This document shows, piece after piece, positions 52,580 through 57,233 of a stretch of DNA of 64,000 nucleotides (its first letter is position 1; each line of letters starts with the position of its first letter). Both the position numbers and the translations under genes were made by a program. Origin of the DNA: an uncultured Chloroflexia bacterium. GTDB taxonomy: Bacteria > Chloroflexota > Limnocylindria > Limnocylindrales > CSP1-4. The stretch covers positions 96,001-160,000 of the forward strand of contig CAVVNQ010000003.1 of the NCBI GenBank assembly GCA_963749705.1. Reading direction: 5' to 3'. The notes under the pieces are model-generated. The model made no database searches, was not told the DNA's origin, and saw nothing but the letters and a program-made list of their open reading frames with translations.

Positions 52580-53245
52580 ATGAGCATGATCCCCGGCATG
52601 GGCCTGGTCCGCGGCATGAGCCTGACGCTGCGGCGGTTCTTCGCGCCCAAGGCGACCATCCAGTGGCCCGAGGTCCGCGCGGACGTCGCGCCCAAGTTCC
52701 GCGGCCGGCTGCAGCTCCTCTACGACGAGTACGGCACGCTCAAGTGCGAGACCTGCTTCCAGTGCGCCCAGGCCTGCCCGATCGAGTGCATCGACATGGG
52801 TGGCATCGACACCAAGGGCCGCTTCCACGTCCACTGGGGCGCACCCGAGACGTACGACGAGCGGCGCGAGGAATCGGCGATGCGACGCGCCGGGCGACCG
52901 GTTGCCGACGCCGCGTTCACCCGCTTCGAGGGGATCGACCTCGCCCCGCTCGACGCGATCCTCGAGGCGCACGACTACGACCCCAAGGACATGCTCGCGA
53001 TCCTCGAGGAGACACAGGCCGAGTACGGCTACCTGCCGGTCGCGTCGCTCAAGCACATCTCGCGGGTGACGGGCGCCTGGTACGCGATGATCTACGGCAC
53101 CGCGACGTACTACCGGCACCTGCGGTTCGAGCCGCCCGCGGTCGACGACGCGCCGGCGGCCGGCGAGGCGCACCTGGCCGCGGAGCAGGCCTACCGGTCG
53201 TCGCTCGGCGCCTCGCTGGGCTATGGCGACGGGGGCGCACGCTGA
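52580..53245 (+). CDS. Fusion: N-terminal half of NuoI + N-terminal helical domain of NuoE
   Basis: TIQWPE...PKFRGR...KCETCFQCAQACPIECI (one motif only), then AILEETQAEYGYLP...IYGTATYY..LRFEP. Confidence 0.85.
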   Translation: MSMIPGMGLVRGMSLTLRRFFAPKATIQWPEVRADVAPKFRGRLQLLYDEYGTLKCETCFQCAQACPIECIDMGGIDTKGRFHVHWGAPETYDERREESAMRRAGRPVADAAFTRFEGIDLAPLDAILEAHDYDPKDMLAILEETQAEYGYLPVASLKHISRVTGAWYAMIYGTATYYRHLRFEPPAVDDAPAAGEAHLAAEQAYRSSLGASLGYGDGGAR

Positions 53246-54584: not shown

Positions 54585-57233
54585 ATGGCCGACCTGATCA
54601 CGCGCCCCGACAGCCCCATCGAGCGGCGTGACGCCCGTCCCGATCAGCCCACGCTGCTGGACACCGTCACGGCCCGCGAGGACACGCTCGCCGAGCGCCT
54701 GATCACGACCCAGTCGCCGCAGCGGCCGCAGAGCACGCCGCGGATCCGGATCGAGGTCGATGGCCGGGTCGTCGAGGGGTTCGAGGGCCAGACGATCCTC
54801 GAGGTCTGCCGCGACAACGGGATCGAGATCCCGACCCTGTGCTACGAGCCCAAGCTGCCCGGCTTCGGCGCCTGCCGGATGTGCGTGGTCGAGGTCGAGG
54901 GCGAGGACACGCCGCCCATCTCCTGCTCGCGGGTCGCCGATGCGGGGATGGTGGTCCAGACGCAGACGGACGAGCTGCGGCGCCTGCGCAGGACCAACCT
55001 GGAGCTGATCTTCAGCGACCACAACGCCTACTGCCTGCCACCGTGCCAGAACAAGTGCCCCAGCCACATCGACATCCCGGGCTTCCTCAAGGCCAACGCC
55101 GAAGCCGACTGGCGCGAGTCCGCGCGGATCTTCAAGCGCACGATCCCCTTCCCGAGCGTGCTCGGCCGGGTGTGCCCGGCCCCGTGCGAGGAGCACTGCC
55201 GCCGCGACGAGGTGGACGAGGCGATCGCCATCCGCGACAGCCACCGGTACGCCGGCGACCAGGTGCTGCGGGCGATGCTCGACGAGGACGTCGATCCGCC
55301 GATCCCGTTCGAGCGCCAGGCGCCGTCCGGTCGCCGGGCCGCGGTCATCGGGTCCGGGCCGGCGGGCATGAGCGCCGCCTACTACCTCCTGCTCAACGGC
55401 CACGACGTCACCGTGTTCGAGCGCGATCCCGCGCCGGGCGGCATGCTGCGGTACGGGATCCCGCAGTACCGGCTGCCCAAGGTGGAGGTCCTCGAGGCCG
55501 AGTACGAGTCCGTGTGGCGGCTGGGCGGCAAGCTCGAGTGCAACCAGGCACTGGGCCGCGACTTCACGCTCGACGACCTCCAGAACCAGGGCTACGACGC
55601 GGTCGTCGTCGCGATCGGCTGCTACAACACCAACAAGCTGGGCATCCCCAACGAGGACGCCGACGGCGTCATCGACGGACTGGAGTATCTCCGCACCGCC
55701 ACGCTCGGGCTGCCCTACCCGGGGCATGCCGGGACCCGGGTGGTGGTCATCGGCGGCGGCTTCACGTCGATGGACTGCAGCCGCACCTCGATCCGCCAGG
55801 GCGCCAGCGACGTGACCCTGGTGTACCGCCGCGACATGAAGGACATGCCGGCGTCGGGCGAGGTCCACGAGGCGATCGAGGAAGGCGTCACGGCGATCTT
55901 CCAGGCCGGCCCGACGCGCGTGATCACGGATGACAAGACGGGCAAGGTCACCGGGGTCGAGTTCATCCGGATGGCGCTGGGCGAGCCCGATGCGTCCGGC
56001 CGGCGGCGCCCGGAGCCCGCACCGGGCACCGAGTTCACGGTCCCCTGCGATCGCGTCCTGCTCGCGATCGGGCAGGGTCCGGAGCTGGACTGGATCGGAC
56101 CCGGGTCCGAGGGACCGGTCGCGACGCGACAGCATCGGCTGGCCTCGGATGCGGTGACCTTCGAGACCGCGCGCCCGGGCGTGTTCGGCACCGGCGACGT
56201 GCGGATCGGCGCGGCGACGGTCGTCCAGGCGATCGCGGAGGGCCGCCGCGCGGCGTACGCCGTGGACGCCTACCTCAAGGGCCAGGACCTCGCCGCGATC
56301 CGCACCCGCCAGACCCTCGCCGAGCCGCAGCCCGAGTTCCTCTCGATCGTGCCGTTCACGGGCGAGGTCAAGGAGCCGCGCTACCGCCTCAAGGCGCTCG
56401 AGGCCGAGGCGCGCAACGACAGCTACGTCGAGTACGAGATCCCGTACACCCGGGACGAGGCGGTCGCGGAGTCGACGCGCTGCCTCCAGTGCACCTGCGA
56501 GGCGATCGGGTTCTGCGACCTGCGTCGGCTGGGCATCGAGTACGGGACGACGCTCAGGACGCTCGAGCCCGCGTTCCACCAGGGCGCCGGCTACCGGAGC
56601 GTGACCGAGAACCGGTTCACCGGGCGCAACCACGACTACGTCCGCGACGACAGCCACGCGTTCATCCTGCGCGAGCCCGCCCGGTGCATCGACTGCGGCC
56701 GATGCGCCAACGTGTGCGCCGAGGTCGTCGGTGCCGCGTGCTACGACTTCATGCGGATCGGCTTCGACACACTGGTCACGACGCCGCTCGACATGAGCCT
56801 CAACGACACGCCCTGCGTGTCCTGCGGCCGGTGCGCCGAGACGTGCCCGACCGGAGCCCTGATGCCCAAGCCACGGGTGCTCCAGAAGTACGAGGTCGAC
56901 GAGAGCCGCTGCATCCTGTGCGGGATCTGCGTCGACGCCTGCCCCTACGATGCCGTGCGCGACAGCGACCAGTTCGAGCTCAGCCACACGTCGCGCGTGG
57001 AGCCGATGATCGACCTCCTCGCGCTGGCCGCGGTCGAGCGCGAGACCGAGATGAGCTATATCCGCCGCGAGCGTGACTGGGCGGAGCGAGCCCGGGCCGA
57101 GGGCCGTGTCCTCGACTCGTCCCGGCTGCTCCCCGTCCTGCCCGCCTCGTTTGCGAGCGGCAATGGAAACGGGAACGGCCACGGAAGCGGACCTGCGTCC
57201 GCGTCCGCGACGGCCCATGCCCACGATCACTGA
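54585..57233 (+). CDS. NuoG-like Fe-S / GltD-like FAD oxidoreductase fused to C-terminal half of NuoI
   Basis: IPTLC..GACRMC..SC 2Fe-2S; [50 protein letters not shown]; then [22 protein letters not shown]..FEL. Confidence 0.88.
   Translation: [882 protein letters not shown]

Follow-up and report, generated by a model that had tools for sequence, protein, structure and literature searches.

Respiratory complex I has been studied as closely as almost any enzyme, and its 14 core subunits are usually treated as fixed units. One of them, the small iron-sulfur subunit NuoI (Nqo9, TYKY/NDUFS8), connects the two halves of the complex; it binds clusters N6a and N6b, over which electrons pass from NuoG to N2 in NuoB. 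NuoI carries two CxxCxxCxxxCP motifs, and in 2[4Fe-4S] ferredoxin folds each cluster is ligated by Cys 1-3 of one motif together with Cys 4 of its partner motif. Among the closest described systems, Nuo-Bfu is a predicted 14-subunit complex I in which BfuABC replaces NuoEFG, reported from Deferribacteres, Proteobacteria, Planctomycetes, and Nitrospirae (Schut et al. 2022, PMC9304861). In mbx-like operons a gltD-like flavoprotein, said to reduce NAD(P)+, substitutes for NuoI (Degli Esposti 2015, PMC4758237), and many Chloroflexi genomes have been described as encoding 13 of the 14 subunits, "missing only NuoG" (Spero et al. 2015, PMC4453560). Here we describe a nuo operon in positions 96,001 to 160,000 of contig CAVVNQ010000003.1 from an uncultured Limnocylindrales soil bacterium of the phylum Chloroflexota (64,000 nucleotides, hereafter the window), in which the nuoI slot between nuoH and nuoJ holds three intact frames, here called X, Y, and Z, in place of an intact nuoI. 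A core subunit is thereby encoded in two pieces, the first joined to X and the second to Z, two distinct subunits of an electron-input module. We are fairly confident that the best explanation of the locus as a whole is a NuoI in two pieces, joined to an Nfn-like input module, in the only complex I of this bacterium.

Like Nuo-Bfu, this locus has a Bfu-related input module amid a nuo gene cluster. However, Nuo-Bfu as described in the main text of Schut et al. consists of 14 separate subunits (A-N) and keeps the full bifurcating BfuBC core, from which the X-Y-Z form differs; the word NuoI is absent from that main text. The mbx-like operons, by their description, resemble the present locus in having a flavoprotein of the GltD NAD(P)H type where a complex-I-like cluster would encode NuoI, but here NuoI is retained, though split, and a NuoF-like flavin mononucleotide (FMN) subunit is also present. 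The Chloroflexi that Spero et al. describe as "missing only NuoG" may carry the split-NuoI form. An earlier note on this DNA, made from the sequence alone, knew of no description of such an architecture, and our literature search, which left subscription journals and supplementary files outside, likewise found no published account of either a split NuoI or a complex I equipped with an Nfn-type module.

Based on Pfam assignments, the + strand from ~48.2 to 63.1 kb of the window is a single tightly packed operon, nuoA-B-C-D-H-X-Y-Z-J-K-L-M-N, which encodes together the core subunits A, B, C, D, H, J, K, L, M, and N, with a Pfam match for each. This is the order, without an intact nuoI, that the earlier note had given. 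Its description of intact and tightly coupled frames also holds at the junctions: the nuoH stop (52573-52575) lies 4 bases before the X ATG at 52580, the X TGA (53243-53245) overlaps the Y ATG at 53245 in a TGATG, and the Z TGA (57231-57233) lies 9 bases before the nuoJ GTG at 57243. An overlap of Y and Z, with Z read from GTG 54534, is probably not real. The Z start is most likely ATG 54585, which corresponds to M18 of the 899-residue frame and is invariant in all 31 aligned Z proteins, so that Z begins after a gap of 11 bases from the Y TAG (54571-54573). Residue numbers of Z are nevertheless counted from GTG 54534 (899-residue frame) throughout.

The NuoI model TIGR01971 (121 positions; family cut-off 113.05 bits) matches X over its positions 1-65 (X residues 12-77; E 1.6e-12, 47.0 bits) and Z over its positions 71-114 (Z residues 781-824; E 6e-12, 45.2 bits). 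The earlier note had called for such an alignment with a hidden Markov model as a check on its claim, and the two matches are complementary and non-overlapping, each falling under the cut-off for a whole NuoI. As that note had read it, X opens as NuoI and contains only the first motif, with exactly one CxxCxxCxxxCP (C56/C59/C62/C66/P67, window 52745-52780); a single extra Cys at residue 70 is not conserved in the alignment, and no Cys follows it. Scanned alone, X residues 1-100 have NuoI families in all top 11 NCBIfam positions, and an hhalign comparison of 33 X sequences with 10 ordinary Chloroflexota NuoI sequences gives a probability of 99.7% (E 6.4e-26).

The missing second half is found where the note had placed it, at the C-terminus of Z just before nuoJ, in a 36-residue stretch that begins at ~56889. 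Its motif, C, is the last of three CxxCxxCxxxC motifs in Z (A, B, and C); X has one. The note had also considered that it might group with generic ferredoxins, which would have spoken against its reading; scanned alone, Z residues 775-899 instead have NuoI families in all top 7 NCBIfam positions, at second-half model positions. The flanks of the motif, YE.D..RC..CG.C...CP..A......FE.S...R, align to the 10 ordinary Chloroflexota NuoI sequences. In a fragment alignment on the same 10 proteins, the breakpoint falls in the loop between the two CxxCxxCxxxCP motifs, a loop whose length varies among ordinary NuoI too.

Conservation follows the same division. The four Cys and the Pro of the X motif are invariant in 33/33 X sequences; all twelve Cys of Z motifs A, B, and C are invariant in 31/31 Z sequences, down to 24-45% identity, as are motif C as a whole and F814, E815, and R821 behind it. 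All 8 NuoI-type Cys (X motif plus Z motif C) are invariant. No single polypeptide with both NuoI motifs scores over the cut-off, and no frame in the genome does. Compared with ordinary NuoI, the N-terminal region, both motifs, and the FE(L/M)(S/A)...R tail are kept, and X-Y-Z also keeps the gene position between nuoH and nuoJ. However, the halves lie here on two polypeptides ~4 kb apart, with a complete flavoprotein gene between them, and each half is fused to a different input-module subunit. At the level of sequence, the two halves of NuoI are both complementary and conserved.

The remainder of X, together with Y and Z, makes up an electron-input module. The second domain of X matches the N-terminal parts of NfnC/HydC-type chains in PDB entries 9bov_C (E 9.9e-11), 9n5u_C (NfnC), and 8oh5_A; 8oh5 and 9bov are presumably the enzymes of Sporomusa and Caldicellulosiruptor. 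The earlier label of "NuoE-like" for this part holds as far as the family match goes, but the match is limited to positions 2-63 of the 145 of PF01257, the N-terminal portion. Given the lack of Cys in this domain, X has no 2Fe-2S (N1a/C1) site. Y contains PF01512, PF10589, and a weak SLBB match and no ferredoxin-type Pfam domain, scores 324 bits against TIGR01959 (cut-off 558.65), and is closest to NfnB and HydB. Its alignment to NfnB (9n5u_B; E 4.7e-102) is confined to residues 126-537 of 602, and therefore both terminal cluster domains are missing.

Z residues 71-803 match 9bov_A (E 9.8e-160), NfnA (9n5u_A, 2.3e-142), and 8oh5_C (2.4e-139). The GltD-like region within this span scores 551 bits against NF009454 and 318.6 bits against TIGR01318 (positions 48-465 of 467), and the glycine motifs for flavin adenine dinucleotide (FAD) and NAD(P)H (G273/G275/G278 and G407-G409), as well as Y431/R433, are invariant in 31/31. 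NADPH rather than NADH would be the substrate of this domain. It is followed, after a four-Cys site, by a two-cluster domain with motif A (C718/721/724/728) and motif B (C761/764/767/771), matched by PF22117 (Fer4_Nqo3) at residues 711-776. The alignment to 9bov_A passes motif B and then stops, at residue 697 of 1178; beyond this point NfnA goes on into a NuoG/formate dehydrogenase (Fdh)-like domain and Z into NuoI sequence. No molybdopterin-type Pfam domain was found for Z among the 25 listed of 29 families.

The NfnABC/Stn enzymes thus share with X-Y-Z the same three subunits in the order E-like, F-like, G-like. Their large subunit, whose domains are described for NfnA by Xiao et al. (2025, PMC12018979), has the same N-terminal 2Fe-2S domain, the same GltD/NfnL-like FAD/NADPH insertion with two clusters, and the same four-Cys cluster followed by a two-cluster ferredoxin-like domain. 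Z differs from NfnA in lacking the NuoG/Fdh-like C-terminal domain, in place of which it has the NuoI C-half; Y differs from NfnB in lacking the N- and C-terminal cluster domains; X differs from NfnC in lacking the 2Fe-2S cluster and in having the NuoI N-half; and the whole module is located within a nuo operon. In comparison to canonical NuoEFG, the FMN subunit, the NuoG-type 2Fe-2S/4Fe-4S chain, and the NuoE-type N-terminal domain are homologous, while the N1a site and the NuoG C-terminal domain are absent and there is an extra FAD/NADPH domain with two clusters. Scores for the canonical subunits stay far below the equivalog cut-offs (NuoF 324 versus 558.65 bits, NuoG 89.8 versus 470.05, NuoE 18.4 versus 142.4). 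The three-gene electron-input module of the earlier note is therefore confirmed as X-Y-Z, although not as a plain NuoEFG: with its GltD-type FAD/NADPH domain, it resembles, in predicted domain content, a trimmed NfnABC/Stn (Bfu-type) transhydrogenase.

One ligand position of Y departs from the usual pattern. Residue 353 (window ~54301-54303, counted from ATG 53245), the second Cys of an N3-type CxxCxxC, is Ser. Among 32 aligned Y proteins this position is S/T/A in 14 (most of families f1, f2, and f4 of the class) and Cys in 18, the latter comprising family f3, other families, and two f1 genera. The FMN-adjacent cluster of Y may be ligated by three Cys or altered in type. The length of X also varies: in this genus X is ~220 residues long and ends after the NuoE-like N-terminal domain, and in f2, f4, and other f1 genera (L023, L052, L054, L055, L027, and others) it has 273-286 residues, with an extension that is thioredoxin-like in look and contains only a C-x-C-x2-C group, an incomplete 2Fe-2S ligand set.

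The layout is conserved across the whole class Limnocylindria, a group widespread in soil and freshwater. An X-like fusion occurs in 40 of 41 relatives (15/15 of the high-quality ones) and in 192/201 genomes of the class, a tally that takes in 8 unpublished genomes (f1 59/60, f2 7/7, f3 59/66, f4 65/66, f5 1/1); the carriers include single-contig genomes. In a draw of 301 genomes from the phylum, most matches cover the N-terminal part of NuoI only and represent ordinary NuoI, but among the matches listed the full X fusion is present in at least 12 genomes of other families, 5 unpublished genomes included. By source names, the family is found in Candidatus Limnocylindrales/Limnocylindria and other Chloroflexota, including the cultured Ktedonobacteria Dictyobacter arantiisoli, D. 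alpinus, and Tengunoibacter tsumagoiensis. A search of representative proteins returned 1660 at E up to 0.001, many of them fragments, and the names of 10 representatives were Chloroflexota only; among genome contigs with related loci, the best 80 of 493 confirmed were nearly all labelled Chloroflexota or Limnocylindrales.

In 34 fetched X loci, Y adjoins X in 33 and Z is present in 32, the exceptions being L039, at a contig end, and L042, a lone second copy. The latter (4557-5321, - strand, in genome G292) is a second nuoB-X pair without Y or Z, in which the C-terminus of X is different and longer; we took it to be a partial duplicate and left it aside. Locus L032 contains two tandem Z copies, both of 802 residues, downstream of X-Y (422-2827 and 3065-5470, - strand). 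In L036 (7292-11148, genome G043 of f4), Y is in three frames and Z in two, by frameshifts or assembly errors, and the locus is otherwise conserved.

The window's own genome is a metagenome-type assembly of 22 contigs, 88.18% complete, and contains one NuoD locus. None of its 16 weak matches to the NuoI model is over the cut-off, at that completeness, and the two best are the halves in X and Z. In the class, an intact NuoI scores over the cut-off in only 3/121 genomes (f1 0/44, f2 0/5, f3 2/21, f4 1/49), and in only 3/118 class genomes at least 90% complete and at most 5% contaminated. The three intact copies lie at G110:C2:11608-11994, G100:C126:649-1032, and G061:C21:90112-90495, and may stem from a second, canonical complex I or from contamination. 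An intact nuoI elsewhere that serves this complex, which the earlier note had named as a way for its claim to fail, was thus not found in the 88.18% of the window's own genome that is covered, and in the class an intact NuoI was found in these three genomes only.

Junction support was found in public sequencing runs. Contigs from three soil DNA runs of one study and from one sediment RNA-library run of another bridge all four junctions, H/X, X/Y, Y/Z, and Z/J. The soil runs are possibly the source sample itself, and the RNA-library contigs, possibly DNA carry-over, are no proof of transcription; coverage of the words sampled from the stretch stayed under one half in every public run (best 0.35), with parts of Y uncovered. 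Two checks that the note had suggested, recurrence of the breakpoints in related genomes and read support at the junctions, came out in its favor, the former through the class tally and the fetched loci. Such recurrence goes well beyond chance, and a one-off misassembly does not agree with the recurrence across the class or with the bridging contigs.

The gene context of X-Y-Z varies, but Q-module genes accompany it throughout. Families f1 and f2 have the arrangement A-B-C-D-H-X-Y-Z-J-K-L-M-N, and f4 has the same order with a gap before J. In f3, X-Y-Z directly follows nuoD, and the genome concerned encodes its only NuoB and its only NuoH at other places. Four genomes of other Chloroflexota families have a stand-alone four-gene cluster, nuoB-X-Y-Z (L029, L030, L031, L033). 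Two of these four, G270 and G348, have nuoC-D-H in a second cluster of its own, joined in G270 by nuoA, from which nuoB and nuoI are missing (L148, 10.0-13.7 kb, and L147). The four nuoB-X-Y-Z genomes also encode a canonical-type NuoD, and G348 and G248 an ordinary NuoI. The f4 gap, from the end of Z to nuoJ, measures ~1.3-1.8 kb (L027 10985-12775; L028 11252-12544).

In a NuoD tree, one clade of 13 rows (support 99/95) forms apart from the canonical NuoD that these genomes also encode. It contains all X-adjacent NuoD, those from the nuo(A)-C-D-H clusters in G270 and G348, and three further non-canonical NuoD loci of G248 and G292. Since this clade stands apart from canonical NuoD, the split-NuoI form is, on phylogenetic grounds, a separate lineage of complex I; in Limnocylindria it would be the only complex I. 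The window and loci L154-L159 show a difference within NuoD: PF00346 matches the form linked to X-Y-Z in two pieces (~1-170 and 197-271) but canonical NuoD from these genomes in a single piece (1-271), and therefore the segment at model positions ~170-197 is divergent or missing in the linked form.

The layout would have arisen by insertion of a three-gene cassette into nuoI, with which the order H-X-Y-Z-J fits, and the recipient would have been an 11-subunit complex. Other Chloroflexota have nuoB-X-Y-Z and nuoA-C-D-H as separate clusters, which leaves room for another order of events.

For the assembly of the complex, we infer that the NuoI N-half of X and the NuoI C-half of Z would fold together into one 2[4Fe-4S] ferredoxin-type domain, in which N6a and N6b would each combine three Cys of one chain with a fourth Cys of its partner. 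Motifs A and B of Z, spaced by 33 residues, align jointly to NfnA (9bov_A), HydA, and Nqo3, in which the two make up a single domain. If A and B pair as in every solved relative, Z motif C and the X motif are left as partners. The shared clusters would complete the electron wire to N2 in NuoB. The NuoE/NfnC-like helical domain of X should dock onto Y, so that the input module would be tied to the Q-module from two sides, by X (through its NuoE-like domain on Y) and by Z. In ordinary complex I, much of the contact is made by the large C-terminal domain of NuoG, and the two-sided tie would offset its absence.

NADH electrons would enter at the FMN of Y and NADPH electrons at the FAD of the GltD-like domain of Z; both paths would merge in the Z cluster chain and continue through the shared X/Z clusters and N2 to quinone, coupled to proton pumping. 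The module is probably non-bifurcating, with NADH and NADPH as input, because the extra clusters of BfuB and the 2Fe-2S cluster of BfuC are absent; as reported in Schut et al., non-bifurcating homologs lack clusters B2-B5 of BfuB. We put at slightly better than even the fuller proposal that cassette insertion created a two-chain ferredoxin fold with N6a and N6b across its interface, in a proton-pumping complex I fed by NADH and NADPH that is the only one of the class and a second one in Ktedonobacteria and other Chloroflexota.

Co-folding of the halves, another check proposed in the earlier note, did not fail. For X residues 1-112 with Z residues 700-860 and four 4Fe-4S clusters, ipSAE was 0.36/0.36/0.37, and the best of 3 controls reached 0.00; partner pLDDT was at least 62 and contact agreement between runs at least 67%. 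In calibration, the mark was reached by 58/80 solved complexes and 2/110 mismatched pairs, and 7 of the 80 solved complexes along with both passing mismatches scored 0.60 or under. The result was graded "weak support", and with so many NuoI structures solved, resemblance to these may add to the score.

Several observations weigh against this reading of the locus. The joint fold is a prediction, the co-fold pass being weak, and AlphaFold2 of Z residues 640-862 alone (30-row alignment) was unusable, with a mean pLDDT of 35.3 and a pTM of 0.27, and is silent on the pairing of motif C. The case is built on sequences and predictions, and the genome is incomplete. The Ser at the N3-type position of Y suggests that the NADH branch may be altered. 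Moreover, with two nucleotide sites on a shared wire and nothing to couple them, electrons could pass from NADPH to NAD+ uncoupled, which looks wasteful, and the genome also has a PntB transhydrogenase (C21:17578-18948). When Z is compared with NuoI, hhalign aligns residues 758-836 with both NuoI motifs, matching B to the first and C to the second (probability 99.4%, E 1.7e-21), and the B+C stretch scores best in the PDB with polyferredoxins (MvhB, FwdF), sharing with these and clostridial-type ferredoxins a 22-residue spacing. By these matches, an intrachain B+C pair is therefore compatible with the sequences. Motifs B and C would then form a complete NuoI-like 2[4Fe-4S] domain within Z, the X motif would pair with motif A or hold its cluster otherwise, and NuoI would not be rebuilt from halves, though X would still share clusters with Z. 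We give this arrangement a small chance, considering that A and B align as a pair to NfnA, HydA, and Nqo3 and are covered together by PF22117, that homology between Z and NfnA does not extend past motif B, and that the NuoI-specific N-terminal 55 residues are in X and the NuoI tail in Z, parts that belong to one fold in ordinary NuoI.

X-Y-Z could also be a soluble Nfn/Stn-like NADH/NADPH oxidoreductase that happens to lie inside the nuo operon, while the membrane complex works without it or with a NuoI missed by an incomplete assembly. The closest solved relatives of the module are indeed soluble transhydrogenases, and in some Chloroflexota X-Y-Z is found apart from most nuo genes. However, the beginning of X is the N-terminal region specific to NuoI, a part that packs against the membrane arm in complex I structures, and the near absence of intact NuoI holds in the most complete genomes of the class. 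Even where detached, X-Y-Z keeps nuoB or nuoD, its partner nuoA-C-D-H cluster lacks nuoB and nuoI, and the linked NuoD proteins form a clade of their own; the Fdh-like domain of Z, the ferredoxin-binding C-terminal domain of Y, and the 2Fe-2S cluster of X, all features of the soluble enzymes, are missing. We therefore regard a soluble enzyme as very unlikely. Similarly improbable is a bifurcating or confurcating complex I of the "Nuo-Bfu" type, as proposed for Geobacter and others, in which oxidation of NADH (or NADPH) and reduced ferredoxin would drive quinone reduction. It is true that Y and Z are nearest to bifurcating Bfu enzymes and that membrane-bound Nuo-Bfu complexes have been predicted (Schut et al. 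2022). The B2-B5 clusters of BfuB are nevertheless absent from Y, which covers only the NfnB core and has no ferredoxin-type domain, and the BfuC/NuoE-type 2Fe-2S cluster (C1) from X, which has no Cys beyond residue 70; as described by Xiao et al. (2025), the bifurcation site consists of FMN, one 4Fe-4S cluster, and one 2Fe-2S cluster, elements of which are missing or cut here. Almost no weight attaches to an artefact, whether a misassembly, a frameshifted nuoI, or a decaying operon. The assembly is of metagenome type and in 22 contigs, but the frames are intact and tightly spaced, the same architecture recurs across the class, single-contig genomes included, and in the fetched loci, the 8 NuoI-type Cys are invariant, and DNA-run and RNA-library contigs bridge the junctions.

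If the split-NuoI reading is correct, it would be a new way to attach an input module to complex I and a rare natural ferredoxin fold built from two chains, and the GltD-type FAD/NAD(P)H site on the wire makes direct entry of NADPH into a proton-pumping complex I testable. X proteins are annotated as "NAD(P)H-dependent oxidoreductase subunit E", "ferredoxin", or "hypothetical protein", and Z proteins as "FAD-dependent oxidoreductase" or "formate dehydrogenase major subunit". Genomes annotated in this way are therefore counted as devoid of NuoI and NuoG, and complex I may be mistaken for incomplete when the metabolism of these Chloroflexota is reconstructed. Cultured carriers, the Dictyobacter and Tengunoibacter species, make biochemistry and cryo-electron microscopy feasible.

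Table 1. Genes of the nuo operon and domains of X and Z, in window positions.
Feature	Position	Strand	Evidence and remarks
nuoA	48241..48684	+	PF00507 Oxidored_q4, E 2.4e-31; start uncertain: GTG 48232, ATG 48241, or GTG 48328
nuoB (N2 subunit)	48675..49436	+	PF01058 Oxidored_q6, residues 156-265 of 290-residue frame, E 4.9e-26
nuoC	49438..49986	+	PF00329, E 7.7e-39
nuoD, X-Y-Z-associated lineage	49988..51226	+	PF00346 in two pieces, 1-173 and 199-271; 13-row clade, support 99/95
nuoH	51223..52575	+	PF00146, E 4.3e-106; likely start GTG 51223 overlaps nuoD stop
X	52580..53245	+	221 residues; NuoI N-half fused to NuoE/NfnC-like N-terminal domain
X residues 8-83, NuoI N-half	52601..52828	+	NF004536 positions 12-87 of 180 (E 1.9e-14) and TIGR01971
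X residues 116-187, NuoE/NfnC/HydC-like N-terminal domain	52925..53140	+	PF01257 positions 2-63 of 145, E 2.2e-8
Y	53245..54573	+	442 residues; NuoF/NfnB-like FMN subunit cut to core
Z	54585..57233	+	NfnA/StnA-like subunit, NuoI C-half at C-terminus
Z residues 70-145, NuoG-type 2Fe-2S domain	54741..54968	+	PF13510, E 7.8e-21; C103, C114, C117, C131 invariant
Z residues 167-570, GltD/NfnL-like insertion	55032..56243	+	PF14691 and PF07992; Fer4_20 two-cluster domain, FAD and NAD(P)H Rossmann domains
Z residues 650-776	56481..56861	+	four-Cys site C650, C653, C655, C661, then HydA/Nqo3-type two-cluster domain
Z residues 781-824, NuoI C-half	56874..57005	+	motif C: C793, C796, C799, C803, P804; then F814, E815, R821
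nuoJ	57243..57779	+	PF00499
nuoK	57779..58111	+	PF00420
nuoL	58122..60110	+	PF00361 and PF00662
nuoM	60110..61645	+	PF00361
nuoN	61656..63119	+	PF00361

The start of nuoB is likely ATG 48675, overlapping the end of nuoA, within a frame open from GTG 48564. NuoB has a long N-terminal extension, its Pfam domain beginning at residue 156 of the 290-residue frame, or at ~residue 119 when counted from ATG 48675. Two more NuoF-like (PF01512) genes lie at G000:C3:567347-567862 and G000:C8:250821-251306, in frames of 784 and 611 residues, and probably encode soluble NuoF/HydB-type enzymes. No tRNA genes were found in the 64-kb window, nor any Rfam families at gathering score. Upstream of the operon, at window 30844-38421 on the + strand, is a heat-shock cluster encoding HSP20, Lon protease, DnaJ, and ClpB.

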